Source: a virus (lineage: Duplodnaviria; Caudoviricetes). Taken from it: 64,000 nt of DNA. Positions within the stretch are counted from its first letter, which is position 1. Each line of letters opens with the position of its first letter. Where the stretch lies: IMG/VR virus record IMGVR_UViG_3300032782_000010, positions 1,930-65,929 of that record; one strand, given 5' to 3'. A program made the position numbers and the translations under genes. Shown in pieces: positions 1,996 through 20,906 of this stretch. The notes under the pieces are model-generated. The model worked only from the letters and a program-made list of their open reading frames with translations. It searched no databases and was not told the DNA's origin.

Positions 1996-4383
1996 GTGCC
2001 TAAGAAGAGCAAGCCCGACGACGCCGCAGCGCCGACGAGTACTCCGCAAGAAAGTTCGGCTCCGCCCAAGCCAAAGAAGACGTTCGAGCCGTTAAAGCGC
2101 GAGCTCGTAAAGAACATACCAGACGAGCTCCGCGCCCTACGCCAGTGGGTCGGCTGGAAGCTAGAGTTCAAGGACGACGGAAAGGCCAACAAGCGCCCCG
2201 TCGACGCCTCGACCGGCTACTACGCGAGCACCACCGACAAGTCGAAGTACTCGACGTTCGACGTCGCGCTCGAGTCGATAGCGAAGTTCGGGCTGATGGG
2301 AGTAGGCTTCGTCTTCACCCGGGAGGATAACTACGTCGGCGTCGACCTCGACGCCTGCAGGGACAAGACGACGGGCGAGCTCGAGTCCTGGGCCCAGCAC
2401 GTCGTCGACCAGTTCGACACCTACTCGGAGGTCTCGCCGTCCGGCACCGGGATAAAGATGATCGTGCGCGGCAAGCTCCCCGGAGAAGGCAACCGCCGCG
2501 GCGCTATCGAGATGTACGAGCACGGCCGCTTCTTCACGATCACCGGCGCGATACCGACAGAGCACCCGCGCCCGATCGCCGAGCGCCAGGCCGCGATCGA
2601 CGCCCTCTACCGCGAGCACATCGCCATCCAGCCGGCCGAGGCGTACCAGGCCGCGCCGCCGCCGATCGACGACGCAGACCTCGACGCGATACGCGCGATC
2701 CCGGACAAGCAGCTGATAAGGATCGCCTCGAACGCCGCGAACGGAAAGAAGTTCAAGGACCTCTGGGACGGCTCTGCGGCCGCGTACGGCGACGACCAGT
2801 CGAGCGCCGACCTCGCGCTCTGCTCGCTCCTCGCCTTCTACACGGGCCGCGACGTCGCGCGCATCGACCGGCTCTTCCGACAGTCAGGTCTTATCCGGAA
2901 GAAGTGGGACGAGCGGCACGGCGCGCAGACGTACGGCGAGAAGACGATCGCGAAGGCGATCAGCGGCACGCGCGTCGTCTACGACCCGTCGACCCGGCTC
3001 TCGGAGCTCAACGACACCCTGAACGCCGAGATCTTCATCGAGCTCCACTCGGACGCCCTCTGCTACTGCTCGATGTGGAAGACGTGGCTCTCCTGGGAGG
3101 GCACGCACTGGAACTACCACTCCGGCGTCGAGAACTCCCGCGCGTACAACGCTACTTCCAACGTCCAGAAGTACCTCCTCGAGAAGGCCGCGGACGAGCC
3201 CGGCGAGCAGCGCAGGAAGCAGCTCCAGAAGTGGGGCGTGCAGTCGGGCGACAAGTACAAGCGCGACGCGATGCTCTACATCGCCGCGCAGCGGAGCGAC
3301 CTCCCGCCGTCGATCTTCGACCGAGACCCGATGCTCATCGCCGCCAAGAACGGCGTCGTCGACATGCGCAAGGAGTGCGGCCCGAACGAGCGCTTCCGCC
3401 CGGCGCGACGCGAGGACTACATAACGCGCTGCGCTGGCGCCAACTTCGACCTCAAGAAGGAGTGCCCCACGTTCAACAAGTTCCTCTTCGACGTCATGCA
3501 GGGCGACGACGAGATGATAAAGTACATCTGGCGCGTGATGGGATACGCGCTGACGGGCGACATACGCGAGAGGGCGTTCTTCATCCTGCACGGCGGCGGG
3601 CGAAACGGCAAGACGACGTTCCTCGAGCTGCTGATGGCGCTCGGCGGGACGTACGCACAGAAGGCCAGGTTCTCGTCGTTCCTGAAGAAGAAGAACGACG
3701 CAGGCCCGAACGACGACATCGCTCACATGGTGGGCTCGCGGATAATCGTGGCGAGCGAGGCCGAGGAGGGCGCAGCGCTCAACACCTCGCTCATCAAGGA
3801 GATGACCGGCGGAGACGCCATCCGCGCCAGGTTCCTCTACGGAAAGGAGTTCGAGTTCAGGCCAGTAGCCAAGTTCTTCTTCGCGACCAACGCCATTCCG
3901 AACATCTACGAGTCGACGGAGGCGATATGGGACAGGATCCACTGCATACCCTTCACGTACCGAATCCCGGACGACAAGATCGACAAGATGCTGGGGCTGA
4001 AACTTCGCGAGGAGCTCGACGCGATCTTCTCGCAGGCCGTGATGTACTGCGCCATCTGGCAGGCGATCGGCAACCTGCTCCCGCCGGACAAGGTGAGGAA
4101 GAGCGTGAGTCATCTGAGAGAAGAAATGGACGTCTTCGGCGAGTGGCTAAACGAGTGCGTCGAGCCCTTCGAGACGACCAACGACGCGCTTACGAGAGTC
4201 GGCGAGACGTACAACAACTATCGCGAGTGGAACGAGAAGACCCGTGGCAAGGGCATGAAACCACGCTCGAAGATAGCTCTAGTACGCTATCTGGCAAGCC
4301 ACGGGGTCAACGTCGAACCGGGCACGGATAACGTTAAGTTCTTCAAGGGGCTAGCTTTACGTCTTATAAGTCCACGGATTTGA
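1996..4383 (+). CDS. primase-polymerase/helicase (NrS-1 polymerase-like N-terminus plus P4/D5 SF3 helicase)
   Basis: QWVGW, GVDLDAC, SEVSPSGTG, IEMY..RFFTITG, DQSSAD; Walker A GGGRNGKTT; KEMTGGD.I.AR. Confidence 0.92.
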   Translation: MPKKSKPDDAAAPTSTPQESSAPPKPKKTFEPLKRELVKNIPDELRALRQWVGWKLEFKDDGKANKRPVDASTGYYASTTDKSKYSTFDVALESIAKFGLMGVGFVFTREDNYVGVDLDACRDKTTGELESWAQHVVDQFDTYSEVSPSGTGIKMIVRGKLPGEGNRRGAIEMYEHGRFFTITGAIPTEHPRPIAERQAAIDALYREHIAIQPAEAYQAAPPPIDDADLDAIRAIPDKQLIRIASNAANGKKFKDLWDGSAAAYGDDQSSADLALCSLLAFYTGRDVARIDRLFRQSGLIRKKWDERHGAQTYGEKTIAKAISGTRVVYDPSTRLSELNDTLNAEIFIELHSDALCYCSMWKTWLSWEGTHWNYHSGVENSRAYNATSNVQKYLLEKAADEPGEQRRKQLQKWGVQSGDKYKRDAMLYIAAQRSDLPPSIFDRDPMLIAAKNGVVDMRKECGPNERFRPARREDYITRCAGANFDLKKECPTFNKFLFDVMQGDDEMIKYIWRVMGYALTGDIRERAFFILHGGGRNGKTTFLELLMALGGTYAQKARFSSFLKKKNDAGPNDDIAHMVGSRIIVASEAEEGAALNTSLIKEMTGGDAIRARFLYGKEFEFRPVAKFFFATNAIPNIYESTEAIWDRIHCIPFTYRIPDDKIDKMLGLKLREELDAIFSQAVMYCAIWQAIGNLLPPDKVRKSVSHLREEMDVFGEWLNECVEPFETTNDALTRVGETYNNYREWNEKTRGKGMKPRSKIALVRYLASHGVNVEPGTDNVKFFKGLALRLISPRI

Positions 4384-5024: not shown

Positions 5025-5145
5025 AGGCTAAATCTTGCACCGGCTTGTTCCCAGGCTCGCCGAATCGCTCACTATCGCGCTCGTAGCGATGGTGATTTTT
5101 TTTATCCCCGCAGCGGCCTCTACCACCGTGGACTTCGGAGGGGAG

Positions 5146-6777
5146 ATGTCAGTAGAAAAGCCCACCTCGATTCTCGACACCCGTACGGGCGAGAGTCGGG
5201 CACAGAAGTTTGCTGCGATCCTGAAGCGCGAAGACGAAGATGCGCTAGCGAAGCGCAAGGCGTTTAACGCGCTCACCGACGCCGAGAAGCTCCAACTAAA
5301 GTACAGCTGGGAGTTCTGGGCTCGTCCGAACCAGTTTCTTCCGGACTCTTCACACAACTGGCAGACATGGCTCATCATGGCGGGTCGAGGATTCGGGAAG
5401 ACGCGCACCGGCGCAGAGGCGGTCAGGAAGTGGGCGAAGAAGGACACCCTCGTCAACATCATCGCTCCGACGGCGGACGACGCTCGGGACGTATGCATCG
5501 AGGGCGAGAGCGGGATACTCGCGATCTGCCCGAACGGAGAGCGGCCGGAGTATGTTCCGTCTAAGCGTAGACTGGAATGGCCCAACGGGGCTATCTCGAT
5601 GATATTCACCGCCGACGAGCCCGAGCGTCTCCGCGGAAAGCAGCACAAGAAGCTCTGGTGCGACGAGCTCGCCGCGTGGCGTTACTGCGAAGACGCGTGG
5701 GACCAGGCTCAGCTCGGTCTTCGGCTCGGCGGCGACCCGCAAGCGATCGTCACGACGACTCCTAAGCCCATCAAGCAGGTGCGTGACCTAGTGGCGGACC
5801 CGACGACGTTCCTCACTCGAGGCACGTCGTACGAGAATCGCCTCAACCTGGCGAAGGCGTTCTACGCGCGTATCATCACGAAGTACGAGGGCACTCGACT
5901 CGGTCGTCAGGAGTTGAACGCCGAGCTCCTCGAGGACCGTCCCGGCGCACTGTGGACTCACGCCCTTATCGACGAGAATCGCATCAAGAATCCTGACGTA
6001 TTCTGGAAGGACATATATCCGAAGCTCGTCAGGATCGTGACCGCGGTGGACCCGGCCGTAAGCTCGAACGAGGACAGCGACGAGACGGGTATCGTCAGCG
6101 TCGGGATGGACGACCAGAACCCGGCGCACTTCTATCCGTTCGACGATCGCAGCGACATCTACACCCCTGACGGGTGGGCTAAGGCCGCGGCCGCGGCGTA
6201 CTGGGGCTACAAGAGCGATCGAGTCGTCGGCGAGGTGAATAATGGCGGCGAGATGGTCGAGTCGACGCTTCGGCACGTCAACGAGAACATCAGCTACACG
6301 GCGGTTCACGCGTCACGAGGCAAGATTACGCGCGCGGAGCCGATCAGCGCTCTCTACGAGCAGAAGCGCGTTCATCACGTCGGCGCTCTACCCCAGATGG
6401 AAGATCAGATGTGCGACTACGATCCGGTGACTGCGACTTTCTCGCCAGACCGCATGGACGCTCTCGTCTGGGCGATCACCGAGCTGAGCGAAGGCCTGAC
6501 GACTCTAGGCTTCGTCGAGTATCTTAAGGGCGGCAAGGCGGAGGAGGAGTTGAAACAGATATCTAAGGTCTCTCGAGCGACAACTCTCGCCAAGCCTGAG
6601 GTTGCGGACGCCGCGCCGCGGTGCCCGGCGTGCGAGAGCGCCGTGATTCAAGATATTCCTGGGGGCGAGAAGAAGTGCGTCGCGTGCGGTAAGCAGTTTC
6701 GGCTGGGCGAAGCTCCGCCGGTCGTCGCTCCTGCTTCGCGAGCCGACTACCTTCTCGAGAGGAGCAATCACCGGTGA
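5146..6777 (+). CDS. terL: terminase large subunit with C-terminal Zn ribbon
   Basis: Walker A MAGRGFGKT, PERLRG, WCDE Walker B, VDPAVS, GEVNNGG, SPDRMDA; C-terminal CPAC...CVAC; ATG 5146 with GGAGGGGAG RBS. Confidence 0.95.
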   Translation: MSVEKPTSILDTRTGESRAQKFAAILKREDEDALAKRKAFNALTDAEKLQLKYSWEFWARPNQFLPDSSHNWQTWLIMAGRGFGKTRTGAEAVRKWAKKDTLVNIIAPTADDARDVCIEGESGILAICPNGERPEYVPSKRRLEWPNGAISMIFTADEPERLRGKQHKKLWCDELAAWRYCEDAWDQAQLGLRLGGDPQAIVTTTPKPIKQVRDLVADPTTFLTRGTSYENRLNLAKAFYARIITKYEGTRLGRQELNAELLEDRPGALWTHALIDENRIKNPDVFWKDIYPKLVRIVTAVDPAVSSNEDSDETGIVSVGMDDQNPAHFYPFDDRSDIYTPDGWAKAAAAAYWGYKSDRVVGEVNNGGEMVESTLRHVNENISYTAVHASRGKITRAEPISALYEQKRVHHVGALPQMEDQMCDYDPVTATFSPDRMDALVWAITELSEGLTTLGFVEYLKGGKAEEELKQISKVSRATTLAKPEVADAAPRCPACESAVIQDIPGGEKKCVACGKQFRLGEAPPVVAPASRADYLLERSNHR

Positions 6778-6962
6778 GGGATTACGTCATGGAAGTTTTG
6801 CTACGGCGCTGCGGGGCGCGCGAGTGGCGGACGGCGATCAAGAAGAGCTCTAAGGCTATTGACTTGTCTCACCGGGTGGAGCAGCCAGATACGAGCATCC
6901 GTCGAGAGCCTTCGGAGACGAGAGTTGAGAACTGGGTCAGGTGGCACGGAGGTCGATACTAA
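6774..6962 (+). CDS. hypothetical protein
   Basis: GTGA overlap with the terL stop, GAGGAG RBS. Confidence 0.4.
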   Translation: MRDYVMEVLLRRCGAREWRTAIKKSSKAIDLSHRVEQPDTSIRREPSETRVENWVRWHGGRY

Positions 6963-6963
6963 C

Positions 6964-7875
6964 ATGAGCTTCAAGCTGGATGGTCGAGCGGGAATGTCTT
7001 CACTCTCACGCTCCAAGCGTAGGCTGATTCCAACGCTAACCTTTCGGCTGATCGCTTGCTTTCTCCTGGCGCTGGCTTCGGCTGGTGCCGGGAGAGCGCA
7101 GGCACCTGCCACGGTCGCGGTCGCTGACACGCTATTCGCGCCGGGTGGCAGCCCGGCTACTGGTACGTTGACGGTCACGAGCGCTATCACGATGACGACG
7201 AACGACGGATACGTCGTCCCGGCTGGGACGAAGACGGTGGCGATCATCGGCCCTACTGGTCAGTTCTCGGTCTCTCTTGCTCCGAATATCGGCGCGGCCC
7301 CGATGGGCACTTACTACTACGCGGACTATGTCACTTCGACGTCGCGCTACCGCGAGACGTGGGTGGTTCCTCAGTCTTCGACCACGCTGAGGCTTACTGA
7401 CGTTCGCGTCGTCTGGAACAACATCCCCGTTCCGAACGTTCAGATACCTGCGAGTCAGTTCAAGCCACCGGTGAACTTCTTCAATAACTGCGTCATGCGC
7501 TGGACGGTTCTCGGGTGGTACTGCTCGACCGACAACCTCGGGAGCGTGTCTCTCGACCTCGAGCTTCCTACGCCCGCTGATACGGGTAAGTTTCAGTGGA
7601 AGCCGAAGAACGCGCTCACCATTACGCGCCTGTCGTGTGATACGGACCAGGGCAGCGTCGATCTGAACCTCGAGCTTCGGACCGAAGCTAGCCCGAACTC
7701 CTCCGGCACGGCGATGCTCTCCACTCCTCTGACGTGCGGGCCTAACACCACGGCGTCAACTTTGACTTTCGCGGTCAGCGTAGTACCGAGCTCGACACCG
7801 GTCGCTCTTTCGATCGTAAGTGTCAGCGGTTCGCCTCTGATCGTGAGGATTCATACGGACTATCAGTTAAATTGA
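6964..7875 (+). CDS. putative exported beta-rich virion-associated protein
   Basis: Signal-peptide-like LIACFLLALASAGAGRAQA; start uncertain (6964 or 6994). Confidence 0.7.
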   Translation: MSFKLDGRAGMSSLSRSKRRLIPTLTFRLIACFLLALASAGAGRAQAPATVAVADTLFAPGGSPATGTLTVTSAITMTTNDGYVVPAGTKTVAIIGPTGQFSVSLAPNIGAAPMGTYYYADYVTSTSRYRETWVVPQSSTTLRLTDVRVVWNNIPVPNVQIPASQFKPPVNFFNNCVMRWTVLGWYCSTDNLGSVSLDLELPTPADTGKFQWKPKNALTITRLSCDTDQGSVDLNLELRTEASPNSSGTAMLSTPLTCGPNTTASTLTFAVSVVPSSTPVALSIVSVSGSPLIVRIHTDYQLN

Positions 7876-7894
7876 AAAAGGAGAACTGTTTTTT

Positions 7895-8587
7895 ATGAAC
7901 AAGAACGTAAAACTCTTCCTTCGGTGGTTCGGGCTCGGCAGCGGCGTGCTAGCGATCGCGGTCATCCCTATTCTCGGTCTCACCCAGGCTGAGCACCTGA
8001 AGACCGTGAGCGCCGCGTCGACGAAGGTCGGTCGAGGTGCGCCTATTCAGGAGCGGACGGTCGCCCTGAACATGGTGAACGTGACTACTCGTCACTGCCA
8101 GAAGTATTCTCGCCAAACGCAGACAAAAAATGGCGATCAATACGTATGGACTTACGAGATAGACGCAAACGCTTGTGCTCAGGATTCATCGACGATCTTC
8201 TACTCGCACACCGATCACAACCTTCGAACCAATGCCGGCAGTGATGCACAGTCTTCGCAGATGGGCAACACTTCGACTCAGGCCGCTTCGTGCAATTACA
8301 TCGCATTGACCAACGATGCGACCGCTCCGTCCGCTACAGATACCACGCTGACGAGCGAGATTAGCACCAACGGCCTCGGCCGCGCGCAGGGCACCTACGC
8401 GCACACGACCGGGACAGCCTCGTTCACCGTGCAGAAGGTCTTCAGCGCGACCGGCACGCAGGCTAGCCAGAAGACGGGCCTGTTCAACGCGAGCTCGTCC
8501 GGCACTCTCTGCTTCGAGAACACGTACACCCAGGTCACGGTGAACAACGGCGACACGCTGACCGTGACGTGGACGATCAACATCTAA
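7895..8587 (+). CDS. putative virion appendage/fibre-base protein
   Basis: AAGGAG RBS; hydrophobic N-terminus; C-terminal GLFNASSSGTL...GDTLTVTWTI pattern common in phage structural proteins. Confidence 0.75.
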   Translation: MNKNVKLFLRWFGLGSGVLAIAVIPILGLTQAEHLKTVSAASTKVGRGAPIQERTVALNMVNVTTRHCQKYSRQTQTKNGDQYVWTYEIDANACAQDSSTIFYSHTDHNLRTNAGSDAQSSQMGNTSTQAASCNYIALTNDATAPSATDTTLTSEISTNGLGRAQGTYAHTTGTASFTVQKVFSATGTQASQKTGLFNASSSGTLCFENTYTQVTVNNGDTLTVTWTINI

Positions 8588-8752
8588 GAGTCTTGGGGGA
8601 AAGAGCGGCCTGGCTGGGTCACAGCCCCCTTCGCCAGGAGATGAGTCCAGATAATCTCGAGAGACTGCCGGACTAGCTTAAGGGACTCCCCGGCACCAAA
8701 AGAAGGTTCTCGAGAAGCCCTGAGTAGGATCGGAGACGACGAGAAACATTGC

Positions 8753-10948
8753 GTGAGCTGGTACTCCAAGTCGCGGTGGTTGGCAGCAGCAATCTTCTTC
8801 TTGCTGCTGCCGTTCGTCGTTTTCTCCCAGACGAAGATCAGGCTGCACGACGCGGCGTCGGACGTCTCGGGCTACAAGAAGGCGGACCTGGCTCTTGGCC
8901 CTTCGAACACCACGGCGGTGACCAACACTCAGGCGAGCGGCACGGACATCCAGGTGACGAAGACCGGCGGCGGCTCGACGGTCGCCTGGATAACTCAGCC
9001 GTTTCAGACGGCGGTGACGATCTCGGGGACGGTGACGTGCAACATCTACGCGGGCGAGTCAGCGACGTCGGCGAACGCAGCGCTGCGCTGTCGTCTGTAC
9101 AAGTACTCCGGTGGCTCGGAGGGCTCGACGTTCATGACGGCGAACATGTCGACCGAGCTCTCGACGTCGACTACGACGGTTCGGAACTGGACTGGCTCGC
9201 CGACGAGCACGAGCTTCGCCGCTGGCGATCGCCTCGTCATCAAGCTCTTTCTCGAGAACTGCGCGACGAGCGGCTGTCCGACCGGGACGATGGCAGGATC
9301 TCAAACGGTGACGGTGGGCTACGACGGCACGACGGACGGCTCGAACGCCGCGAGCTGGGTGCAGACGAACGAGAACTTGGTCTTGAGTCCTTCGCCTTCG
9401 GTCTCCCTCACGACGAGCGATTCATGCGTGACGTCAACTTGCCGAGCCGCATCGCCGATCGACACGGTGATCGGTTCGGATTCGGTCGCCGCAACGAAGG
9501 GATCTTCAAATACCGTAACACCGTCAGAAAGTTTGACGACCAGCGATTCGGCCCGCGCAACGACGTTCAAATCTGGTGCTGTCTCGGAAAGTCTTACTAC
9601 CACGTCTTCTGTGATTACGGCGGCGGGTTTCGTCAAGTCGCCCACCGAGTCGCTGACCACGACGTCTTCGTGCGCTACGGCTATTTGTCGACCGATAGGG
9701 GTGATAGATACGGTCATTGGCTTGGACTCGGTGGCGGCGAGTCATGGATACTTTACCGCCGTGTCGGAGTCGCTGACGACGAGCGCGTCCGGGAGCGGGT
9801 CGACCTCGACCTCGAAGAACGCGAGCGTGTCGGAGTCGCTGACGACGAGCGCGTCGTGCTCTGCGTCTACCTGCCGCCCGGTGCCGATCATCGAGACGGT
9901 GCTGAGCTCGGACTCCGTTATAACTGGTCACAACTTCAGCATCCCGATCACTCAGAACTTAAGTACTCAGGACAACGTCAGCGGAAGGATCGCGAGCATA
10001 TCTATCTCCGAGAGTCTGAGCACGTCGAGCTCGGCGACGGCCGTAAAGAACAACGGCGGGATAGTGGTAGAGAATCTGACGACGAGCTCTTCGGTGACGG
10101 CTACCAAGGTGGCGTCCGTATCGCTCTCAGAGAATCTAAGTACGATAGACTCCTTGCTTGCGCTACTCTGCGGCGCGATTCCGGAGAACCTGACGACCGT
10201 CGCGACGCCGGTCGTGACGGCTCAGTACAACAGAGTAGCGTCCGAGTCTCTCACGACGAGCGGGACGACGCTGACCTCGCTGGGGCTTCACGTTTCGGTA
10301 TCTCAGAGCTTGACTACGACGGACTCGTCGGCGACGACGAGGTCTCTCCTGGTATCGGAGTCAGAGTCGCTCACTACGAACGACGCGGTCGCGACGTCGA
10401 ACACGACGCCGAACAGCATCCACGTGAGCAACACCTTGACGACTACGGATCTAGTGACTGCGATCTCGGACCAGTCGGTGAGCATAAACAACACGTATAC
10501 TCCGACGGACGCGGTAGCTTCCCAGCTGGACGCCGCAGCGTCGGTAGCAGTGAGCATTCCTACCGTGGCGAGCGTGAACGTAGCCACGATAGCTCACTTC
10601 TCGGTGGACGTATCGGAGAGCTTAACTACGGCCGCGTCGGGATCGACGTTCTCTCAGTTCGTGAGATCGCTTACGGAGAACACCGCGACGTCGGACTTCG
10701 CGAGTCAGTTGAAGTCTCTCGGTGCGTCGGCCTCGGAGAACTTGGCTACAAGCGACGCGGTCACGGTGTCTTCTACCCATCTGCTCTTCGTCGCGGCGAC
10801 GACGACTCTCCACGAGAGCGACGCCGTCGGGACGGTTTCGCCGCTAGCTGTTCAGATGGGAGAAGGGACGAGCACCCAGGACGTCGTTACGGTTACGGTC
10901 ATAAGGTTTGGGACGCGGAGACGCTTCGTGATTATCGAAACACCATAG
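8753..10948 (+). CDS. Ser/Thr-rich repeat protein with signal peptide (putative filament/fibre)
   Basis: WLAAAIFFLLLPFVVFSQ leader; about 25 degenerate S-E-S/N-L-T-T repeats at ~20-aa spacing. Confidence 0.8.
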   Translation: MSWYSKSRWLAAAIFFLLLPFVVFSQTKIRLHDAASDVSGYKKADLALGPSNTTAVTNTQASGTDIQVTKTGGGSTVAWITQPFQTAVTISGTVTCNIYAGESATSANAALRCRLYKYSGGSEGSTFMTANMSTELSTSTTTVRNWTGSPTSTSFAAGDRLVIKLFLENCATSGCPTGTMAGSQTVTVGYDGTTDGSNAASWVQTNENLVLSPSPSVSLTTSDSCVTSTCRAASPIDTVIGSDSVAATKGSSNTVTPSESLTTSDSARATTFKSGAVSESLTTTSSVITAAGFVKSPTESLTTTSSCATAICRPIGVIDTVIGLDSVAASHGYFTAVSESLTTSASGSGSTSTSKNASVSESLTTSASCSASTCRPVPIIETVLSSDSVITGHNFSIPITQNLSTQDNVSGRIASISISESLSTSSSATAVKNNGGIVVENLTTSSSVTATKVASVSLSENLSTIDSLLALLCGAIPENLTTVATPVVTAQYNRVASESLTTSGTTLTSLGLHVSVSQSLTTTDSSATTRSLLVSESESLTTNDAVATSNTTPNSIHVSNTLTTTDLVTAISDQSVSINNTYTPTDAVASQLDAAASVAVSIPTVASVNVATIAHFSVDVSESLTTAASGSTFSQFVRSLTENTATSDFASQLKSLGASASENLATSDAVTVSSTHLLFVAATTTLHESDAVGTVSPLAVQMGEGTSTQDVVTVTVIRFGTRRRFVIIETP
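9760..9855 (+). repeat. 30-bp direct repeat inside the repeat-protein gene
   Basis: CGTGTCGGAGTCGCTGACGACGAGCGCGTC at 9760-9789 and 9826-9855. Confidence 0.9.
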
Positions 10949-10958
10949 GAGAGATGTG

Positions 10959-11741
10959 ATGAGAAAGATTCTAAGTTCAATTCTTTGCTTGGCGTTAATG
11001 CTTGGTTTCTGTCAGGTCGCCGACCCGCAGTCTGGCTGCGTCATCCCAGCGCAGACCGCGCTCGTGAAGACGTCAAGCTATACCGGACTCTCCACCGATG
11101 CCGGGAAAATGATTGTCTTCAATTGCTCCTCGGCATGCACTTACACGCTGCCCTCCACGCCGCAATCGCCTAACTGGACCGTGTGGGTTGTCACTGAAGG
11201 AGCTGGAACGGTCACCATCAATCCGAATGGTCTGACGATTAACAATTCTTCTTCATCCTTCGATTTGCCGATCACGAGCGGATCCGGCGTCACGATTTCT
11301 ACGGATAACACGAACTATTTCGCGCATGGTATTAGGACGACTTACCATTCATGCGATATCGCTTTTGGAAGTACAAATGCCTCATCGGCGCTCGCGAATG
11401 CCGATCTTGGACCTCAATCGCGTGTCTGTTTTGTTCCTGCGGCCGGCACAGTCATTGAAGTTCGCGTGAACGCCGACGCGGGAACACCGAATATCATCGT
11501 GGGTCGCAATCGCGCCGGTACGGTCGTCAACCTGACCTCTTCGGCTCTAGCGACCGCCTCGTCCGGAGGGATCGCGTGCGCCGAGACCGGGACGACCTCC
11601 GCATTTGATGCTACGACTTGCTCGGCGACGTTGCAGAACACCGGACTCAATAAGGGGGATTACATCGAAGCGGTGAGCGGTACGGCGGGTGGAACGGCGA
11701 AGTGGATGGTCGCCCACATCATCTATACGACGGTGAACTAA
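10959..11741 (+). CDS. putative exported virion-associated protein
   Basis: AGGAG RBS; MRKILSSILCLALMLGFCQ leader; TYTLP/GTVTI fibre-like motifs. Confidence 0.75.
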   Translation: MRKILSSILCLALMLGFCQVADPQSGCVIPAQTALVKTSSYTGLSTDAGKMIVFNCSSACTYTLPSTPQSPNWTVWVVTEGAGTVTINPNGLTINNSSSSFDLPITSGSGVTISTDNTNYFAHGIRTTYHSCDIAFGSTNASSALANADLGPQSRVCFVPAAGTVIEVRVNADAGTPNIIVGRNRAGTVVNLTSSALATASSGGIACAETGTTSAFDATTCSATLQNTGLNKGDYIEAVSGTAGGTAKWMVAHIIYTTVN

Positions 11742-12446
11742 ATGTTCAGAAGACTTTTACTCTCAGCGATTCTTATTCTTTCTCAGCAAGCACGCATTCC
11801 CGGGCCTGGAGGATATAAACCATCTTCCGGAACTCTAGGTCCCGGAGCTACTTGCACCGGTCATGTCGCAGCCGGAGATGTGACTTGCATATTCAGTCCA
11901 AGTCTTAGCAGTGGCAGTATTCTTATTATCGGATGGGCTGCCGCGGGTCCTCCCACTGGATTCACCGTAACGGGTTGCGGGGCATCGTGGGCGAGTGATA
12001 CTTTTTCCCAAGATGCGAATAGATCAATAGGGACCGGTGCTTCTTCCGGAGCTTGTACCGTTACGATCCACGTTACCGCAGGAACGGATTCACAGAAAGA
12101 TGTCGCCGGGCTCGAAGTTAAGAGCAGTAGCGGAATTGACGATTCGGCTCACGGCGCTATCGCGGATCAGGGTTTTATCGCTACGCCGAATACGATCAGT
12201 TCTCCGAGCTTGACTACGACGGTTAGCAACGCCTTGGTTATTGGAATAGTTGTAGATTATAACGGAAACGGGACGACGTTCACGGCCGGTTCTCCTGCGA
12301 CTATAGCGGTCCAAACGAGTCAGGCTACTAATGTCAACGTCGCGATAGAGTCCTACACGAAAGCGACTGCCGGGGCAACGCAGCCGACTTTTACTTACAA
12401 CAGTAATTCTAGCTTTGCGACTGCATCGGCGGCGTTTAAACCATGA
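11742..12446 (+). CDS. putative exported beta-sandwich protein
   Basis: MFRRLLLSAILILSQQA leader; Gly/Thr/Ser-rich. Confidence 0.7.
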   Translation: MFRRLLLSAILILSQQARIPGPGGYKPSSGTLGPGATCTGHVAAGDVTCIFSPSLSSGSILIIGWAAAGPPTGFTVTGCGASWASDTFSQDANRSIGTGASSGACTVTIHVTAGTDSQKDVAGLEVKSSSGIDDSAHGAIADQGFIATPNTISSPSLTTTVSNALVIGIVVDYNGNGTTFTAGSPATIAVQTSQATNVNVAIESYTKATAGATQPTFTYNSNSSFATASAAFKP

Positions 12447-14488
12447 GGAAATTTTCTCTAATTGCGGCGATTCTCTTCTTCACTCCCTTCGCTCAGGCGG
12501 CAACACATTGGGTCAGCCCGACCGGAGCCGCGGCGTATGGAAGTTGTATGGGCGCGTCTCCGCTGAGCGGAACGAGCGCTTGTTCGCTCGGCACAGCGAA
12601 TGCAAATGCTATCGCCGGAGACCTTGTTTACCTGAGGGCGGGTACTTACAGCACCGGGGTAGCGCCAACGCACAGCGGTTCTAGTGGGAATCGAATCACT
12701 TTTCAGGAATATCCTACCGATGGCTCGCAAACGGCAATCATTTCTGGCGTCATCTATGGGATTGACCTTGAAGCTGTTTCCTATATCGTTGTGCTGAATC
12801 TGGAAATTCTCAATCCGACCGTGCATTGGGGGAACATCACCGAAGGTGCTCACCACAACGAGGTAGCTAATTGTCTCTTCTTGGTAACCGGCACCCAAAG
12901 CGCACCGTCTTTCTTCATCGGCCCAAATTCCGATCTTCTCTTCCCTACACATAACTGGATTCACAACAACACCTTTAGCTGGACTCCAGGGGCAAAGTCA
13001 GTTGGAACAGAAGGCGCTGGCTGTACAGACGGCGGCGGGGACGACCTAGACGTTGGACAGTCGGGCGGAACCTACGGCAACACGACGGGCGATAACAGCA
13101 ACAACAACTCGATTGAGAACAATATTTTCAACCACGCCCCTCACGCAGCGTTCGACGGATACGCCAAGTTCACGGTATTCAGAGGGAATATAATCAATAA
13201 CGAACCGTGGTCATCCGGTTGCTCAACCACGACGAACTACTCCAATACTCTCTATTCTAACTCGACTTACAACGGGAAGTACGCTCACAGAGACGCTCAG
13301 TTCACGGAAGACTTCAATCGCGACATGACTTTCAACTTGTTCGAGGGGAATCGCTTCGGCTACGCTGGCATCAATCAAGACAATGACGGCGCTGAGAATT
13401 TTGACCTCGCTACGGACGGCTCAATCCTTCGCTATAGTTTCTTCTACGCCTCGATGGGTTCCTGCCTTCAGTTCAAGTACACCAGAGGAGGTGGCGTAGG
13501 TGGAGGCGGAAATGGTGGAACCTACAACCGTACTTACAACAACACTTTCTATGATTGCGGAATTGGCTGGCCCCCTGCCGTGCTGGCAGTCGGAAGTGGC
13601 TGCAACACTAGCTCATGTCCATTTGCCGCGGTAGCCATCTCAAACTACATCGGCGGCTCATCCGGCTCGGCGCAGGGCAATGTAGTAAAGAACAACCTCA
13701 TCTATGAGCCGGATTCGCTTGGTCTCGCTACCTATCATGCCGATGCGATTGACCATAGTCCGGGAGGCTCTAGCCCTCCCTTCTCCCCTACTATTTCATG
13801 GACTGAATTTGCATCCGCCACAAACAACTGGTGTACTCAAGCGCAAACTTCTGGCGGCGCTTGTTCGGCTACTGGGAATCCCTTGTTCACAAATCCCGAT
13901 ATTACAACGCCATCCAGCATAACACTTCCAGACTTATCTCTTCAATCAGGCTCACCTGCCATCAATGGCGGAACATGGCTCACCACAGCGACAAACTCAG
14001 GTTCTAGCTCAACGACTCTAACTGTTGCTGACGCGCAATACTTCCAGGACGGAACTTGGGGGAGCGACCTTGCGAGGTTATCTGCTGGCCTTGGAGGAAC
14101 ATTCCAGCCGGATTGCATCGCTATCACGACGGTTACGAATACGGTCTGCATCGCCTCTATCACTTATGGAACATACAATGCTCCTGCGGGAACGGTCGCA
14201 CTTGCCTCGCCTATGACTTGGAGCAGTGGGGCGCATATCTGGCTCTACAAGAAGTCTGACGGTTCAGTCGTGCTTGCCGGCGCGGCTCCGGATTATGGTG
14301 CGAGTGAGTTTACCGGTAGCGGTGCTAATCAGAACGGAAGTTGTATGGAGAATCTGACGACGACAGCAGCCGCGTCCACTCAGCGGGCGCTCCACGTTAA
14401 TCCTTCTGAGATTTTGACGACGACATCTTCGATTTCTGGAACAAGTGGTCACCAAAATCTCTTCGCGTGTCACCCGGCGACACCATAA
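12443..14488 (+). CDS. exported right-handed beta-helix (pectin-lyase-like) protein, possible depolymerase or adhesin
   Basis: Signal peptide ending AQA; HWVSPTG, AGDLVYLRAGTY, Asn-ladder repeats, LQSGSPAINGG and APDYGASEF; lower GC. Confidence 0.8.
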   Translation: MRKFSLIAAILFFTPFAQAATHWVSPTGAAAYGSCMGASPLSGTSACSLGTANANAIAGDLVYLRAGTYSTGVAPTHSGSSGNRITFQEYPTDGSQTAIISGVIYGIDLEAVSYIVVLNLEILNPTVHWGNITEGAHHNEVANCLFLVTGTQSAPSFFIGPNSDLLFPTHNWIHNNTFSWTPGAKSVGTEGAGCTDGGGDDLDVGQSGGTYGNTTGDNSNNNSIENNIFNHAPHAAFDGYAKFTVFRGNIINNEPWSSGCSTTTNYSNTLYSNSTYNGKYAHRDAQFTEDFNRDMTFNLFEGNRFGYAGINQDNDGAENFDLATDGSILRYSFFYASMGSCLQFKYTRGGGVGGGGNGGTYNRTYNNTFYDCGIGWPPAVLAVGSGCNTSSCPFAAVAISNYIGGSSGSAQGNVVKNNLIYEPDSLGLATYHADAIDHSPGGSSPPFSPTISWTEFASATNNWCTQAQTSGGACSATGNPLFTNPDITTPSSITLPDLSLQSGSPAINGGTWLTTATNSGSSSTTLTVADAQYFQDGTWGSDLARLSAGLGGTFQPDCIAITTVTNTVCIASITYGTYNAPAGTVALASPMTWSSGAHIWLYKKSDGSVVLAGAAPDYGASEFTGSGANQNGSCMENLTTTAAASTQRALHVNPSEILTTTSSISGTSGHQNLFACHPATP

Positions 14489-14498
14489 AGGAGAAGAA

Positions 14499-14969
14499 AT
14501 GAAAATATTTTACTCAACCTTGCTTCTGCTAATCGGCTTACTCTTCGCGCTCCCGAGCTTCGCGGCGAACCAGCCCGAGCTCGGCGTCATCGTGAACGAC
14601 GCGAAGCCGGTGCTCGCCGGAGCTCTACCGTCGGGGACTCCGAAGACGCTCACGGTGACGCTGACGTTCGACTTCTCTCAGTCGAACGCCTGCTCGGCGA
14701 CGGTGACGACGGGGTGCGTCAAGCAGTTCAACTTCTACCTCTCGGGAGCCGGCGGCGCGAAGACGCTGCTCTTCTCGATCCCCGCGCCCTCGGGCGCGTC
14801 GACTCTCCAGACCCTGACGGTTACGAGCCCCACCGTGAGCTTGGCGCTCGGGAACAACACGATCCTGGCCACGGTGGCTACGCCTGACCCGTTGGAGTCC
14901 TCGGCTCTTAGCGTGGTGGTTCCGGTCCCGCCTAATCCGCTGATCTCGTGCACGATAACGCCTAACTAG
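14499..14969 (+). CDS. exported Ig/FN3-like protein
   Basis: AAGGAG RBS; signal peptide ending PSFA; C-x7-C pair. Confidence 0.7.
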   Translation: MKIFYSTLLLLIGLLFALPSFAANQPELGVIVNDAKPVLAGALPSGTPKTLTVTLTFDFSQSNACSATVTTGCVKQFNFYLSGAGGAKTLLFSIPAPSGASTLQTLTVTSPTVSLALGNNTILATVATPDPLESSALSVVVPVPPNPLISCTITPN

Positions 14970-14986
14970 GCGGTGGAGGAATTACG

Positions 14987-15358
14987 ATGGACCCAGCTTC
15001 TGCTCAAGACCTGGTCATCTCGCAGGTGACGTACTCGACGCTCGCGGTCATGGCGCTGCAGTGGCTGAAGAGGTCTCGGTTTGCGCCGTTCATCACCTTC
15101 GAGACCGACGCGCTCAACAAGATGGTCGCGGCGTTCTTCGCGGCGATGACCGCGGTCGGGATTCACGCTCAGTACGACAGCGTGGCGCATACGCTGATGA
15201 TCACTAACATCACCTTCATGGCGGTGGCGCACGGCGTCTGGCACTTCGTTCAGAGCTTCTCGTTCCAGGAACTTATCTACCACGGCGTTCTTAAGCCGAA
15301 TCCGGCTCCGGTCGTAGTTGCTCCCGTCGCGCCGGTGGTAAAGGAAGAGGGTAAGTGA
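14987..15358 (+). CDS. small membrane protein (holin-like)
   Basis: GGAGG RBS; 2-3 hydrophobic segments; QWLK motif. Confidence 0.6.
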   Translation: MDPASAQDLVISQVTYSTLAVMALQWLKRSRFAPFITFETDALNKMVAAFFAAMTAVGIHAQYDSVAHTLMITNITFMAVAHGVWHFVQSFSFQELIYHGVLKPNPAPVVVAPVAPVVKEEGK

Positions 15359-15708
15359 TCGTCTACTGGCTAAAGCGGCTAGCGGTTTATCTTCTTCGAC
15401 TCGTGCGCTCGCCCAAGAACGGCGAGCTCGCGTTCGTCGACCCGAACGAGAAGTGTCCGTGCTGCGGAGCTCGCGACGGCCACCTGCGCTGCGTGAGCGT
15501 GACCAATAATCAGCTCGGCTGCCAGCACACGTGCAACGTCTGCGGGTGCCGCTGGCTCGTAAAACCGGTGGTCGCGCTGACCTCGACGTGGGCCCAGCCG
15601 GGAGTAGCGAGAACGACGGTGGAGGAGAAGGAAGATCGTGCGCCGCTGCGCCTGTTGATTCCGCCCGCGGCGGACGCGGCAGTAGAGGAGAGAGCAAAGG
15701 CTAGCTGA
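15355..15708 (+). CDS. Zn-ribbon protein
   Basis: CPCC...CNVC; translationally coupled to its neighbours. Confidence 0.6.
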   Translation: MIVYWLKRLAVYLLRLVRSPKNGELAFVDPNEKCPCCGARDGHLRCVSVTNNQLGCQHTCNVCGCRWLVKPVVALTSTWAQPGVARTTVEEKEDRAPLRLLIPPAADAAVEERAKAS

Positions 15709-18155
15709 TGGCACCGAACAACAGTATCGTTATTCGCCCGATGACCGGAGCCGCCGCGGTCCTCGACCGCCTGACGCAGCCGCTCTACGAAGCGCCGGAG
15801 ACGGAGATCCGGGGGCTCGACCCGGCTCAGTGGGCGTCGCCTCTCCAGCCGATCAAGCCGATAGGCGGGCCGAATGCTGAGCCGCAGGCCTTTCAGCTCT
15901 GGGCGGGCCAGAACCTCATCTACACGCCTCGGCCGGACGCGGACCTCTCGGCGGCTGACCTGAAGGCCTTCGCGAGCTACCCACTGGCCCGGCTCTGCAT
16001 CGAGAACATCAAGGATATCGTCTGCGAGGCGCCTTGGGAGATCCAGCTGAAGAGCCAGCCTGGCGAGACGAAGGCTCAGGCGGCGAAGCGCGCGAAGGGT
16101 AACGAGGACCTGCTCAAGCTTAATCGGTTCTTCGAGCACCCGGACCGCGAGCACTTCTGGGACGAGTGGCTGCGGCTGGTGATCGAGGACCTCCTCGTCG
16201 GCGATTACGTGTCGATCTTGATACGCAAGACTTTCGGCGGGCAGCTCGTCGAGACGCCTCCGATCCGCGGAGAGATGATCACGCGGTACGTGGACGCGAA
16301 CGGGTGGACGCCGCTTGCTCCGGACCCGGCCTACGCTCAGCTCTGGTGGGGAATCCCGCGGGTCGACCTCTCGACGGACCAGCTCGTCTACAAGCCGCGG
16401 AACATCGTTCCGCGGAACACGATGGCGTCGCAGCTCTACGGCATGAGCCAGACCGAGCAGCTCGCGCCCGAGATCGAGATCGGCATACAGCGGCTCGCGT
16501 TCGTCCTCGCCTACTACACCGAGGGGTCGGTGCCGGGCGTCGTGCAGGTAGTACCGAAGGGAACGCCGCCGGACAAGATCGAGGAGGCGATGAAGTGGAT
16601 GAACTCAGAGCTCGCCGGCAACCTCGCGAAGCGCCGGCAGTGGCGTCTCGTCCAGGGCTTCAACGAGCCGGGCAAGGCTGACCAGATCGAGTTTACGAAG
16701 GAGGCGCTGCTCTCCGACCCGTACGACGAGAAGCACATGCGCACGCTCGCGTTCGGCTACGGAGTCAGCCCTCAACGACTGATGAAGCAGATGAACCGCG
16801 CGTCGTCCGAGCAGGCCGACGACGCTGCCGAGGTCGAGGGCGTTCGTCCTATCCTCGGCTACGTTCGCAACCTCGTCAACGAGATCATCCAGCGGCGCGC
16901 GGGCTACACCGAGTTTGAGCTGAAGATTGCTCCGCAGGATGAGCCGGACGCTCAGAAGCAGGCCGAGACGCTGACGACGTACGTCAAGAGCTCGGTGCTT
17001 CGGCCAAACGAGGCGCGCGAGAAGCTGGGCGAGGACCCGGACCCGGCCCCCGCGGCGAACGAACTCGGCGTGGTCACCGGCACCGGCTTCGTCACGCTCT
17101 CGCAGCAGCAGGAGCTCCACGAGGCGGCGCTCGAGACGCAGGCCGCGACCGCGGAGGCTCAGCGTAACCCGAAACCGGCGGTGGGTGCTCCTCAGGGGGA
17201 CGGGAAGGCAGGCGCAGCTGGAGAGTCTTCAGGGGGAGCGAAGAAGGAGCCAACCTCCGGTGACGATACGGCGAAGCTCATGAAGGGGCTGCTTCACGTG
17301 GTTCGTAACCACGAGCTCAGGAAGACCAAGAAGGTTCAGCCGCACGGCGTAGTGAAGGCGAAGATCCACCCTGGCAGGCTGACGACCGAGTCGATCGTTG
17401 CGAAGCACGAGCTCGAGCGCGTCGCGCAGAATCGTCTGCGGCGCATGGGCCGGATCGCGACGCGGGTTCTGAGAAAGAGAGTCGGTATCGCGACGAAGGC
17501 GAGCGCGGACGAGAACGCGGCGCTGCAGGAGATCCTCGACGAGCTCTCGGCCGAATGGCTGGCGCTCGCGGAGGAGGCTCGCGGTCCGATCGAGGACGCC
17601 TCGACGTCCGGCGCGGAGCTCGGCACGCTCCAGCTCGATATCACGGACGACGACCTCATCGCGAAGGTGAACGCGCAGGCCTCGGCCTGGGCCGCCGACC
17701 GGGCCGCGGAGCTCGTAGGCATGAAGCGAACGTCGAACGGGGACCTCGTCGCTAACCCGGACGCGAAGTGGGCGATCACCGACACGACGCGCGACAAGCT
17801 CCGGGAGATAATCGCGGACGTCTTCGAGATGGAAGCGCCGACGCTCGCGGATATCGAGCAGCGGATCATAGACGCCGGCATCTTCGACGACCAGCGCGCG
17901 ACGATGATCGCGCGAACGGAGGTCGCTCGCGCTCAGTCGCAGGCGAACCTGATGTCGTGGCGCGAGTCCGGCCTGGTCCTCAAGGTCAGCTGGCAGGTCT
18001 CGGCGGACCACGAGATAGACGACATCTGCGACGACAACGAGGACGAGTCGCCGTACGAGCTCGACAGCATTCCGGAGCACCCGGCGCACCCGAACTGCGA
18101 GTGCGTCATCACGCTCGAGCAGCTCAAGGGCGAGCCGGATGGGAGCGAGGAGTAA
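15708..18155 (+). CDS. portal protein fused to a MuF/head-morphogenesis domain
   Basis: YGMSQTE, YYTEGSVP, LRPNEAR portal motifs; C-terminal IARTE...PAHPNCEC MuF motif. Confidence 0.9.
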   Translation: MAPNNSIVIRPMTGAAAVLDRLTQPLYEAPETEIRGLDPAQWASPLQPIKPIGGPNAEPQAFQLWAGQNLIYTPRPDADLSAADLKAFASYPLARLCIENIKDIVCEAPWEIQLKSQPGETKAQAAKRAKGNEDLLKLNRFFEHPDREHFWDEWLRLVIEDLLVGDYVSILIRKTFGGQLVETPPIRGEMITRYVDANGWTPLAPDPAYAQLWWGIPRVDLSTDQLVYKPRNIVPRNTMASQLYGMSQTEQLAPEIEIGIQRLAFVLAYYTEGSVPGVVQVVPKGTPPDKIEEAMKWMNSELAGNLAKRRQWRLVQGFNEPGKADQIEFTKEALLSDPYDEKHMRTLAFGYGVSPQRLMKQMNRASSEQADDAAEVEGVRPILGYVRNLVNEIIQRRAGYTEFELKIAPQDEPDAQKQAETLTTYVKSSVLRPNEAREKLGEDPDPAPAANELGVVTGTGFVTLSQQQELHEAALETQAATAEAQRNPKPAVGAPQGDGKAGAAGESSGGAKKEPTSGDDTAKLMKGLLHVVRNHELRKTKKVQPHGVVKAKIHPGRLTTESIVAKHELERVAQNRLRRMGRIATRVLRKRVGIATKASADENAALQEILDELSAEWLALAEEARGPIEDASTSGAELGTLQLDITDDDLIAKVNAQASAWAADRAAELVGMKRTSNGDLVANPDAKWAITDTTRDKLREIIADVFEMEAPTLADIEQRIIDAGIFDDQRATMIARTEVARAQSQANLMSWRESGLVLKVSWQVSADHEIDDICDDNEDESPYELDSIPEHPAHPNCECVITLEQLKGEPDGSEE

Positions 18156-18158
18156 GTT

Positions 18159-18503
18159 ATGACGAAAGAAGTGGAAGTCTTAAACACTCAAGGCGCGGAT
18201 GCGACGAAGAACCCATTCGTTAAGGAGCTCCACTCTCCGGAGAGTAAGCTTCCGGTGGCCATAGAGGTTGTTCTTGCTAAGCCGGCTCAGCACGACGCGT
18301 ACCAGTTTGCCGGGAATATTGACGATCGTTTTAGCTTCGGAATGGATAGCTCGTCTACAGCGAGATCGCTTCGTGAGATCGCAGATAAGATCGAGAACGG
18401 GGAATATCTTGTACAGTCCGGATATGTGCTGACATACGCCATGCTAGATGAATATCCGATGTCGGTCGTTCAGCTTAAGTTTCACGCGAAGAGGGTGAAG
18501 TAA
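18159..18503 (+). CDS. hypothetical protein
   Basis: GAGGAG RBS; lower-GC ORF between portal and protease. Confidence 0.6.
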   Translation: MTKEVEVLNTQGADATKNPFVKELHSPESKLPVAIEVVLAKPAQHDAYQFAGNIDDRFSFGMDSSSTARSLREIADKIENGEYLVQSGYVLTYAMLDEYPMSVVQLKFHAKRVK

Positions 18504-20882: not shown

Positions 20883-20906
20883 ATGTCTTGTGGAGACGGA
20901 ACTCTT

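Follow-up and report, generated by a model that had tools for sequence, protein, structure and literature searches.

Why would a tailed phage keep, between its terminase and portal genes, a run of proteins that look built to leave the cytoplasm? The question is raised by a 64-kb window (the whole stretch of DNA analyzed here, bases 1930-65929 within the 65,929-bp virus record IMGVR_UViG_3300032782_000010), in which seven consecutive, tightly packed + strand genes, p1 to p7 (6964-14969), fill the interval between the genes for the large terminase (TerL) and the portal (Table 1). A first-pass annotation, made from the DNA alone, had proposed that these genes encode fiber or appendage subunits that are exported to fold and form disulfides in the periplasm before joining the particle at lysis or, alternatively, a phage-encoded structure on the cell surface. 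From sequence comparisons, we regard it as secure that this cassette combines a sub-lineage of fiber-type proteins with a host-derived polysaccharide enzyme, that its members carry conserved Sec-type leaders, and that it travels as a block within one host class. As to its function, we tentatively favor a late, Sec-exported set of glycan-binding and glycan-cleaving proteins that would act on the host's own surface polysaccharide, independently of the virion; we infer the export, the target polymer, the timing, the association of the members through repeats and the independence from the virion. The probable host class belongs to the Acidobacteria, a dominant soil phylum whose phages are almost unstudied, and a recurrent mobile block of leader-bearing, fiber-like proteins was found here inside the morphogenesis operons of such phages.

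All seven proteins begin with a signal-peptide-like leader

Leaders were scored by a simple rule that required an uncharged window of 10 residues that begins no later than residue 30, has a mean hydropathy of 2.4 or higher and follows net positive charge. The rule was passed by 7/7 cassette open reading frames (ORFs) and by 3/61 other ORFs of the window (Fisher p = 1.2e-7), which bears out the basic-then-hydrophobic leaders noted at first pass; the three others are an N-terminal extension of the TerL ORF and the ORFs at 42760-43236 (- strand) and 57921-58481. The n-regions of p1 to p7 contain 1-7 Lys/Arg and never have a net negative charge. Cleavage sites were judged by eye, without a trained predictor, and are marked here by arrows. 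Small residues occupy positions -3 and -1 in five of the seven leaders, i.e., those of p1 (MSSLSRSKRRLIPTLTFRLIACFLLALASAGAGRA↓QA; site GRA↓Q), p2 (...VLAIAVIPILGLTQA↓EHL; site TQA↓E), p3 (MSWYSKSRWLAAAIFFLLLPFVVFS↓QTK; site VFS↓Q), p6 (...FFTPFAQA↓ATHW) and p7 (...LFALPSFA↓ANQ). The AQA- and SFA-type sites that had been claimed for several leaders can be read in p6 (AQA↓A) and p7 (SFA↓A). The leaders of p4 (MRKILSSILCLALMLGFCQVA..) and p5 (MFRRLLLSAILILSQQA..) end without a clear site.

The seven proteins differ in composition from those encoded nearby. Ser, Thr, Gly, Ala and Asn together account for 44-55% of p1 to p7 vs. 29-33% of TerL, portal and protease, in agreement with the Ser/Thr/Gly richness described earlier, and charged residues are scarce. 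The close Cys pairs quoted in the first-pass annotation are present (CVTSTC and CATAIC in p3, CSSAC in p4, CNTSSC in p6), and p3 has two more, CSASTC and CATSGC. The G+C content at third codon positions (GC3) is 0.45-0.63 for p4 to p6, 0.71-0.85 for p1 to p3 and p7, and ~0.76-0.89 for core genes. None of p1 to p7 matched a Pfam family (for p6, none at E ≤ 0.1), and no lipobox ORF was found in the window.

A GGAG-type motif lies 5' of p2, p4 and p7. The ATG of p5 directly follows the stop codon of p4 and the ATG of p6 overlaps the stop codon of p5; by this arrangement, p5 and p6 are predicted to be translationally coupled to the preceding gene. Promoter-like sites, searched for with a sigma-70-type consensus only, numbered 4 vs. 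3.2 ± 1.8 in shuffles and terminator-like sites 10 vs. 8.6 ± 3.1, and neither kind was found at the cassette borders.

Some start codons have alternatives (6964 or an ATG at 6994 for p1; 10959 or a GTG at 10956 for p4), and p3 starts with a GTG at 8753. That the true starts lie downstream of the leaders, which the first-pass annotation had raised as one way in which it could be wrong, is unlikely in view of the homologues. Among 13 p1 proteins found, 12/12 full-length ones have a leader that ends in A-Q and is followed by a conserved mature part. In the p6 family, the mature start [AG]T[HY]WVSPTG lies within the first 120 residues in 71/105 proteins (query included), and 69 of these 71 have a leader; the remaining 34 are mostly N-truncated gene calls or have other architectures. 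Leaders are also kept in the copies of p2, p4 and p5 in the related loci G406, L042, L049, L052, L053 and L054, which are described below, and every p1-like and p2-like ORF inspected in L049, L052, L053 and L054 is leader-bearing. The leaders are therefore conserved in position, not in sequence, ahead of a conserved mature N-terminus, which argues that the annotated starts are right. We infer that p1 to p7 are exported by Sec.

The cassette arrangement is real and not an assembly artifact, because independent contigs cover both junctions. An independent assembly of the probable source run yielded contigs spanning 5649-13793 and 13780-18500 with zero differences from the window, and a second wetland run contained identical fragments, one of which bridges 14786-15318 across the junction of p7 with the downstream sequence. 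An explanation by wrong starts, chance hydrophobic N-termini or chimeric assembly could appeal to the ambiguous start of p1 and the unclear cleavage sites of p4 and p5. However, the conservation of the leaders at the protein level across families, their enrichment in the cassette and the contigs across both junctions largely refute this explanation, which we consider hardly credible.

A fiber-type fold is predicted for p1 and suggested for p2 and p4

In an AF2 model of p1 with a predicted local distance difference test score (pLDDT) of 76, an Ig-like sandwich is joined by a linker to a jelly roll. The C-terminal domain gave 133 matches in BFVD at E ≤ 1e-3 vs. 6 in PDB, and those in BFVD include the C-terminal regions of phage proteins with tail-fiber, minor-tail, collagen-repeat or Mtd_N annotations. 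Weak Foldseek matches of p1 in PDB include XepA (6i56, E 1.2e-3, prob 0.84, TM ~0.2) and the C-terminal domains of Bd2133 (8ond, E 2.7e-3). In a three-copy model, residues 47-303 of p1 scored 0.93, while the best of 3 controls scored 0.00, and the trimer runs had at least 58% of contacts in common with a partner pLDDT of at least 82. The mark used for this score was reached by 20/30 solved pairs and 1/23 single chains, a calibration that applies only roughly to a model with its own alignment and three copies. The modeling supports mature p1 as a homotrimer formed through the C-terminal domain.

The C-terminal domain of p2 matches phrog_5417, a family with no functional annotation, at 4.5e-7. 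Its neighbors in the Atlas are 64-95% viral, and the Gp80 fiber domain PF23140 is present in 16% of the members of one cluster. p2 is 66% identical to the copy in G406 and 96% identical over 91 aa to that in L042, and leader-bearing copies occur in 8/401 Terriglobia-class genomes, where they lie in prophages. p4 is 44% identical to its copy in G406 and has further copies in L042 and L049, all of them leader-bearing; its Atlas neighbors are all viral and fiber-like but weak, with scores ≤0.85 and TM <0.5, i.e., under the reliability marks of the tool. For p5, the positional counterpart in G406 is 30% identical and likewise consists of a leader followed by IPGPG. No homologue of p7 was found in any fetched locus.

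By Pfam or PHROGs, none of the cassette proteins has an N-terminal domain for docking to a tail or baseplate; their N-termini are the leaders. The earlier proposal of fiber or appendage subunits stands in part: the p1 head, the viral neighbors of p2 and p4, the putative secreted β-helix of p6 (see below) and the Cx3-4C pairs point to fiber-like or extracellular types of protein.

The N-terminal domain of p3 belongs to a large family

In p3, a predicted jelly roll precedes repeats of the type E[SN]L[ST]T.., some copies of which have Cx4C inserts. The N-terminal domain was modeled with a pLDDT of ~70-88 and the repeats with ~22; based on an alignment of 10 sequences, this monomer model cannot tell disorder from an oligomeric fiber in the repeat region. 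By Foldseek, the N-terminal domain best matches the C-terminal jelly roll of CocE/PepX hydrolases (3.9e-7). No tandem repeat was found in p3 at the DNA level, and a recent DNA-level expansion of the repeats is therefore not supported. The Bacteroidetes-type O-glycosylation sequon, D[ST][AILVMT], also lacks support as the meaning of the repeats, since 7 instances were observed vs. 4.5 expected and 322/2000 shuffles reach 7; it is enriched only in some p3 homologues.

A full HMMER scan with the N-terminal domain retrieved 1121 representative proteins at a cut-off of E ≤ 1e-3, of which 631 remained at E ≤ 1e-10. Among the 150 best relatives, 39 have a leader (30/40 of the nearest, 9/110 of the rest), and 99 open directly with the domain, M-[AST]-[TK]... 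The mature start of p3, QTK[IL][RY]LH, aligns with residue 2 of the leaderless relatives (MATKLYL..), which suggests that the leader was added ahead of a complete domain. Leaderless relatives are found in structural modules: in L047, one lies immediately 5' of the protease, decoration and major head genes, and in the 72%-GC provirus G407, one has head genes on one side and tail genes on the other. A dibasic-plus-hydrophobic C-terminal end is present in 26/150 of the relatives vs. 1/104 p6-family controls. Overall, the architecture of the family consists of a signal peptide, a β-rich N-terminal domain and variable tips, including repeats, Kelch (P0109) and LamG (P0111). In the family, represented by window positions 8828-9400 and the proteins P0123-P0266, most members are leaderless and open with MATKLYL.., and many are ~410 aa in length and contain two tandem copies of the domain.

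The N-terminal domain appears to define a large, uncharacterized family without a Pfam, PHROG or PDB sequence match. A Pfam search of 18 N-domain proteins returned PepX_C alone, in 3/18 and at 0.0034; PHROGs on 8 leaderless proteins left the domain itself without a match; a profile of the domain found no credible relative among PDB sequences, with an RNA-binding motif at E 0.003 as its top match; and the leaderless protein P0202 had only a marginal match over 58 aa among cultured phages.

p6 derives from a surface-polysaccharide locus of the host type

We found 104 homologues of p6, some of which (33-73% identity) have PF13229 or PF22842, and these matches suggest that p6 belongs to a family of secreted right-handed β-helix proteins. 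By tblastn, p6 had no match in cultured phages. Its GC3 is 0.55, well below that of the phage core (~0.8-0.9), which points to a recent capture. Among 24 genome loci with p6 relatives, tblastn found none (0/24) with a TerL or portal like that of the window or with a further protein of the cassette. Eight of these loci, including all 6 labeled Acidobacteria, have the conserved order glycosyltransferase (GT) family 2, Wzy_C, p6 homologue, NAD-dependent epimerase, GFO/IDH/MocA oxidoreductase, GT1/4; Pfam identified the flanking families in L004 and L007, and tblastn extended the assignment to the other loci. Wzy_C is the family of O-antigen ligases and polymerases. On this genomic evidence, we regard the derivation of p6 from a host-type Wzy surface-polysaccharide locus as secure; its role as an enzyme is a prediction.

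The phage copy differs from its relatives by a C-terminal tail of 48 residues with two E.LTT (ESLTT-type) units and an ACHP end, which is present in 1/105 family members, i.e., in the phage copy only. G406 and L049 have a different leader-bearing enzyme at the p6 position with tails of the same kind, ..ESLTT..ENLTTT..ACKP and ..ETLTE..ACHP, and the lipobox proteins of both loci are built of similar ESLTT-type repeat units. A hidden Markov model (HMM) of the p3 repeat gave weak matches: p3 of G406 scored E 7e-4 and the lipoprotein of that phage 0.019, and the tails of p6 and the enzymes matched at the domain level only (0.005-0.6). The case for a shared repeat rests mainly on the same position of the tails and the conserved AC[HK]P ending.

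The cassette recurs in unrelated phage backbones

G406 is a complete 39.6-kb temperate phage with terminal repeats. Its cassette has the order p1, p2, p3, p4, p5-like gene, gene for a 653-aa leader-bearing enzyme and gene for a lipobox protein, and lies 3' of tail-tip genes and 5' of genes for membrane proteins, an M15 endolysin and an integrase. What G406 shares with the window is limited to p1 to p4 (40-66% identity), the endolysin and two weak matches of short length. In L049 and L050, the backbone is 31-52% identical to window genes 23264-29118, and a seven-gene cassette directly follows homologues of a block of sugar genes and precedes the head-tail connector gene. L053 has a G406-like backbone and a version with three leader-bearing genes, i.e., a head-only version of p1, p2 and a gene for an unassigned 366-aa protein, flanked by a connector gene and the major tail gene. 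The prophage L064 has TerL and portal, then a p2-like gene, a small ORF and a further leader-bearing ORF, and finally protease, scaffold and major head protein. L052 and L054 contain further versions, and the p2-like genes of Terriglobia-class genomes lie in prophages of yet other backbones. In L042, p2 is followed by an opposite-strand HNH gene and then by p3 and p4.

From these comparisons, the cassette or its p1/p2 core is portable, with a position that varies among carrier phages. No structural protein common to the carrier backbones was found; heads and tails without detectable similarity, together with the varied positions, argue against a common docking partner. The host class would be Terriglobia (Acidobacteria), because the closest genomic relatives of p6 are in metagenome-assembled genomes labeled Acidobacteriaceae, Terriglobia or Sulfotelmatobacter and because p2-like genes occur in 8/401 genomes of that class.

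The gene upstream of the G406 cassette (L035:1-378) ends in a Hint domain (PF13403, 1.1e-8) that may be an intein-like or self-cleaving module of a tail protein, and the HNH-endonuclease-like ORF of L042 (599-1123, - strand) is inserted in the p2/p3 interval.

A possible exported set acting on host surface glycans

We suggest that a portable, self-contained cassette of fiber-type domains (the trimeric p1 head, the β-sandwiches of p2 and p4), p3, whose lectin-like jelly roll would be borne on a long stalk of repeats, and the captured p6 enzyme would be co-transcribed with the late virion genes. The products would cross the inner membrane, where the close Cys pairs could become oxidized, and would bind and cut or modify a capsule, an extracellular polysaccharide or an O-antigen-like polymer of the host, from the periplasmic or the outer side; the likely target would be the host's Wzy-type surface polymer. 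The members would probably associate via the 20-aa ESLTT-type repeats, which the p3 stalk, the C-terminal enzyme tails and, in some phages, a lipoprotein would have in common; this lipoprotein would tie the set to a membrane. One plausible benefit is that the polymer would be cleared for the release of progeny; another is that the receptor would be destroyed or masked, so that progeny and superinfecting phage would fail to adsorb to the infected cell or its debris.

We favor independence from the virion because the cassette occurs in unrelated particle backbones and at varied positions, because it can include a lipoprotein, because the enzyme comes from a non-phage surface-polysaccharide locus in which such proteins are naturally exported, and because XepA of the Bacillus subtilis prophage PBSX, described as late, exported and absent from particles (PMC6834076), offers a precedent. 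Signal peptides as such are reported for ~5% (3261/64,678) of prophage carbohydrate-active enzymes (PMC13507307). Several observations weigh against a role outside the virion. The predicted folds of p1, p2 and p4 are of the kind seen in virion fibers, the leaderless relatives of the p3 N-terminal domain lie in structural modules of other phages, and the p6 relative P0086 has a Gp80 fiber domain where the leader would be. Moreover, every cassette copy found lies within a late morphogenesis operon, closely spaced and in the same orientation, and neither promoter-like nor terminator-like signals exceeded those of shuffles. The similarity between the p3 repeats and the enzyme tails is statistically weak. 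Finally, seven diversifying proteins are many for the masking of a receptor, which, to our knowledge, phages achieve with one small protein.

Many of these same observations would be expected if the seven proteins were appendages of the virion, i.e., fibers and a depolymerase that are exported to fold and form disulfides and that attach to particles built in the cytoplasm only once the holin has breached the inner membrane or the cell lyses. The fiber-type fold and predicted trimer of p1, the viral neighbors of p2 and p4, the constant location inside late structural operons with translational coupling and no detectable signals of its own, and the leaderless p3-type proteins that adjoin head genes in other phages all fit such a role, as does G406, in which the cassette occupies the classical side-fiber slot after the tail-tip genes. 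The exchange of enzyme bodies on a conserved tail resembles that of tailspikes on a conserved anchor, and a β-helix from a secreted family with conserved Cys residues may fold only outside the cytoplasm. We nevertheless consider this explanation rather unlikely. The virions of tailed phages are established to assemble in the cytoplasm, no domain for attachment to a virion was detected, and the carrier phages have unrelated heads and tails and no common docking partner. In addition, G406 and L049 have lipoprotein members, and p6 has its nearest bacterial relatives in polysaccharide loci, outside a phage context. A keyword search of the literature at the level of titles and abstracts returned no report of Sec-exported virion proteins of tailed phages and no virion data on Acidobacteria phages. 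The more specific scenario of a Terriglobia siphophage lineage that sends its fibers and capsule depolymerase through Sec, pre-assembles them in the periplasm through the ESLTT repeats and loads them when the holin opens the inner membrane is, in our estimate, unlikely; we know of no tailed phage with an assembly route through two compartments. The alternative offered at first pass, a phage-encoded structure outside the cytoplasm, is closer to the exported glycan-directed set that we favor than is the virion idea.

Exported fibers could also serve the lysogen. The mosaic adhesive trimer (MAT) fibers of Bdellovibrio are described as having a Sec signal peptide, a conserved β-rich N-terminal domain and variable phage-like tips that are TNF-like, lectin or tailspike-like (PMC10769870). 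The p3 family has the same layout, and the C-terminal domains of Bd2133 are among the weak PDB matches of p1. By analogy, the cassette would encode a set of cell-surface fibers or adhesins that, through lysogenic conversion, alters adhesion, the biofilm matrix or phage receptors. G406 is temperate and its cassette adjoins lysis genes and the integrase, p2-like genes lie in the prophages of 8/401 Terriglobia-class genomes, and a lipoprotein could anchor the set. We regard this explanation as improbable, however, in view of the position in the middle of late head or tail operons in the window, L053 and L064, the lack of a detected promoter or terminator of its own, and the lack of an integrase among the window ORFs scanned. 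Also, the likeness to MAT is confined to p3-family architecture, the p3 N-terminal domain itself being best matched by CocE/PepX C-terminal domains, and the MAT genes are chromosomal genes of a predatory bacterium with products of ~1000 aa, whereas the genes here form a phage-borne multi-gene cassette that is likened to them by layout.

An accessory function in lysis or exit, in which the products help to breach the envelope, has its model in XepA (PDB 6i56), which is encoded in a late operon, is produced late, passes the cytoplasmic membrane and, as described, does not occur in mature particles (PMC6834076). Like p1, XepA is the product of a phage late-operon gene and has two β-sandwich domains and a linker, and in G406 the cassette is contiguous with the genes for membrane proteins and the M15 endolysin. 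XepA is reportedly also named in a paper on non-classical secretion. However, the fold match is weak, XepA is described as a pentamer (PMC6834076) while p1 is modeled as a trimer, the endolysin gene of the window (40652-41185) is 26 kb from the cassette, and none of the seven proteins is a holin or spanin homologue. XepA is, moreover, encoded by a single gene of a lysis cassette in a Gram-positive host, while the present cassette has seven genes, classical leaders and a diderm host and is not tied to lysis genes. We therefore judge an accessory lysis function very unlikely.

The cassette also differs from three other kinds of systems to which parts of it can be compared. Morons and receptor blockers of phage late regions, e.g., lambda Lom and Bor, Cor, and T5 Llp, are signal-peptide proteins or lipoproteins whose genes lie among or next to structural genes and whose targets are the host envelope or phage receptors; each is one small protein, usually under a promoter and terminator of its own. 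In contrast, the cassette comprises 3-8 co-transferred genes for fiber-type folds plus an enzyme, without a border promoter or terminator signal above background; in composition, GC3 gives a mixed picture, being low in p4 to p6 and higher in p1 to p3 and p7. With the depolymerases of virion tailspikes, it shares the β-helix body of p6, the swapping of enzyme bodies on a conserved attachment-like module and, in P0086, the Gp80 domain, but the module is C-terminal and not N-terminal, the leader is predicted to be cleavable and a domain that would anchor p6 in the virion was not found. Bacterial exopolysaccharide loci also encode periplasmic or secreted β-helix proteins, e.g., of the AlgG type. 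The closest genomic relatives of p6 are similarly leader-bearing and flanked by Wzy_C and sugar-modifying or GT genes, while p6 of the phage differs by its extra repeat tail and its place within a phage cassette.

Should the set act independently of the virion, it would represent a multi-protein remodeling, clearing or masking of the host capsule from inside the cell, and the single-protein receptor blockers known so far are far simpler. If the proteins are virion parts, tailed-phage assembly would span two cell compartments, and the recognition of structural genes would change, as signal peptides are now read as evidence against a virion role. The analysis also defines two uncharacterized and directly testable families, the p3 N-terminal domain with >1100 representative clusters and the ESLTT repeat tail.

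Genome context

Table 1. Features of the 64-kb window. Arrows mark cleavage sites judged by eye.
Feature	Position	Strand	Length (aa)	Description and matches
DNA N6/N4 methylase	215-1240			Upstream of packaging genes
Primase/helicase	1996-4383			NrS-1 polymerase HBD, D5_N and DUF5906 domains; upstream of packaging genes
TerL (T4-type large terminase)	5035-6777	+		Left flank of cassette; Terminase_6N 2.1e-24, Terminase_6C 2.6e-12
p1	6964-7875	+	303	Leader, Ig-like β-sandwich, linker, C-terminal jelly-roll "fiber head" domain
p2	7895-8587	+	230	Long hydrophobic leader or anchor, linker, conserved C-terminal β domain (~106-229)
p3	8753-10948	+	731	Leader, N-terminal jelly roll (~26-215), ~17 x 20-aa repeat, C-terminal tail RRRFVIIETP
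p4	10959-11741	+	260	Leader, conserved PQ..CV[IV]PA motif, two β domains
p5	11742-12446	+	234	Short leader, then IPGPG; Ser/Thr/Gly-rich; GC3 0.45
p6	12443-14488	+	681	Leader AQA↓ATHWVSPTG, right-handed β-helix body (via homologues), C-terminal tail ~634-681
p7	14499-14969	+	156	Canonical leader SFA↓ANQ, small β-rich body, GGAG motif upstream
Protein with hydrophobic segments	within 14987-15708		123	Between cassette and portal; no Pfam match
Cys-rich (CPCC..CNVC), zinc-ribbon-like protein	within 14987-15708		117	Between cassette and portal; no Pfam match
Portal with C-terminal Mu-F-like region	15708-18155	+		Right flank of cassette; Phage_portal 1.8e-13; phrog_2662 2.4e-56
Protease-like gene	18508-20187
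Probable major head gene	20880-22898			phrog_13692
Sugar block	23264-27770	+		GT1-like, methyltransferase, GT2-like, UDP-glucose/GDP-mannose dehydrogenase (Pfam); one unassigned gene
Head-tail connector	27872-28552
Probable tape-measure gene	31100-33058			Label from length and position only
Tail gene	33055-34164			N-terminal part matches glycoside-hydrolase-annotated phrog_2913 (3e-36)
RcGTA-type tail-tip genes				Phage_BR0599, Phage-tail_3, Rcc01698_C
M15 endolysin	40652-41185			26 kb from cassette

Because of its gene content, with terminase, portal, head, connector, tape-measure and RcGTA-type tail-tip genes, the window is assigned to a siphophage-type genome. The closest terminases of cultured phages are 40-52% identical to its TerL. 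The TerL ORF begins with a TTG at 5035, which gives it a 37-residue N-terminal extension (5035-5145) with a hydrophobic stretch. Pfam and PHROG matches start at about residues 82-113 and phage homologues align from residue ~66-108; therefore, the true start is probably downstream and the extension is probably untranslated. The portal scored 28.7 bits against Phage_Mu_F, slightly below the cut-off of 29.6. As a single query against viral contigs, it yielded no relative, and a relative in genome G402 was set aside as uninformative, since the region is degraded and lacks a terminase upstream.

The sugar block lies inside the structural operon, with the major head gene on one side and the head-tail connector gene on the other. 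It may serve the glycosylation of phage proteins or the alteration of the host polysaccharide and is possibly linked to the cassette. The tail gene with the phrog_2913 match may encode a virion-borne enzyme distinct from the exported cassette. Near the endolysin gene, two further ORFs are putatively exported: that at 41182-41871 has a twin-arginine-like motif (SRRSFMGLSTSG), and that at 42760-43236 (- strand) encodes a 158-aa protein with a classical leader (MRLSILILSLLLVPVLARA). At the right end of the window (58000-64000), the G+C content is 0.50-0.52 vs. ~0.62 elsewhere and the ORFs have a low GC3, which suggests a region of different origin.

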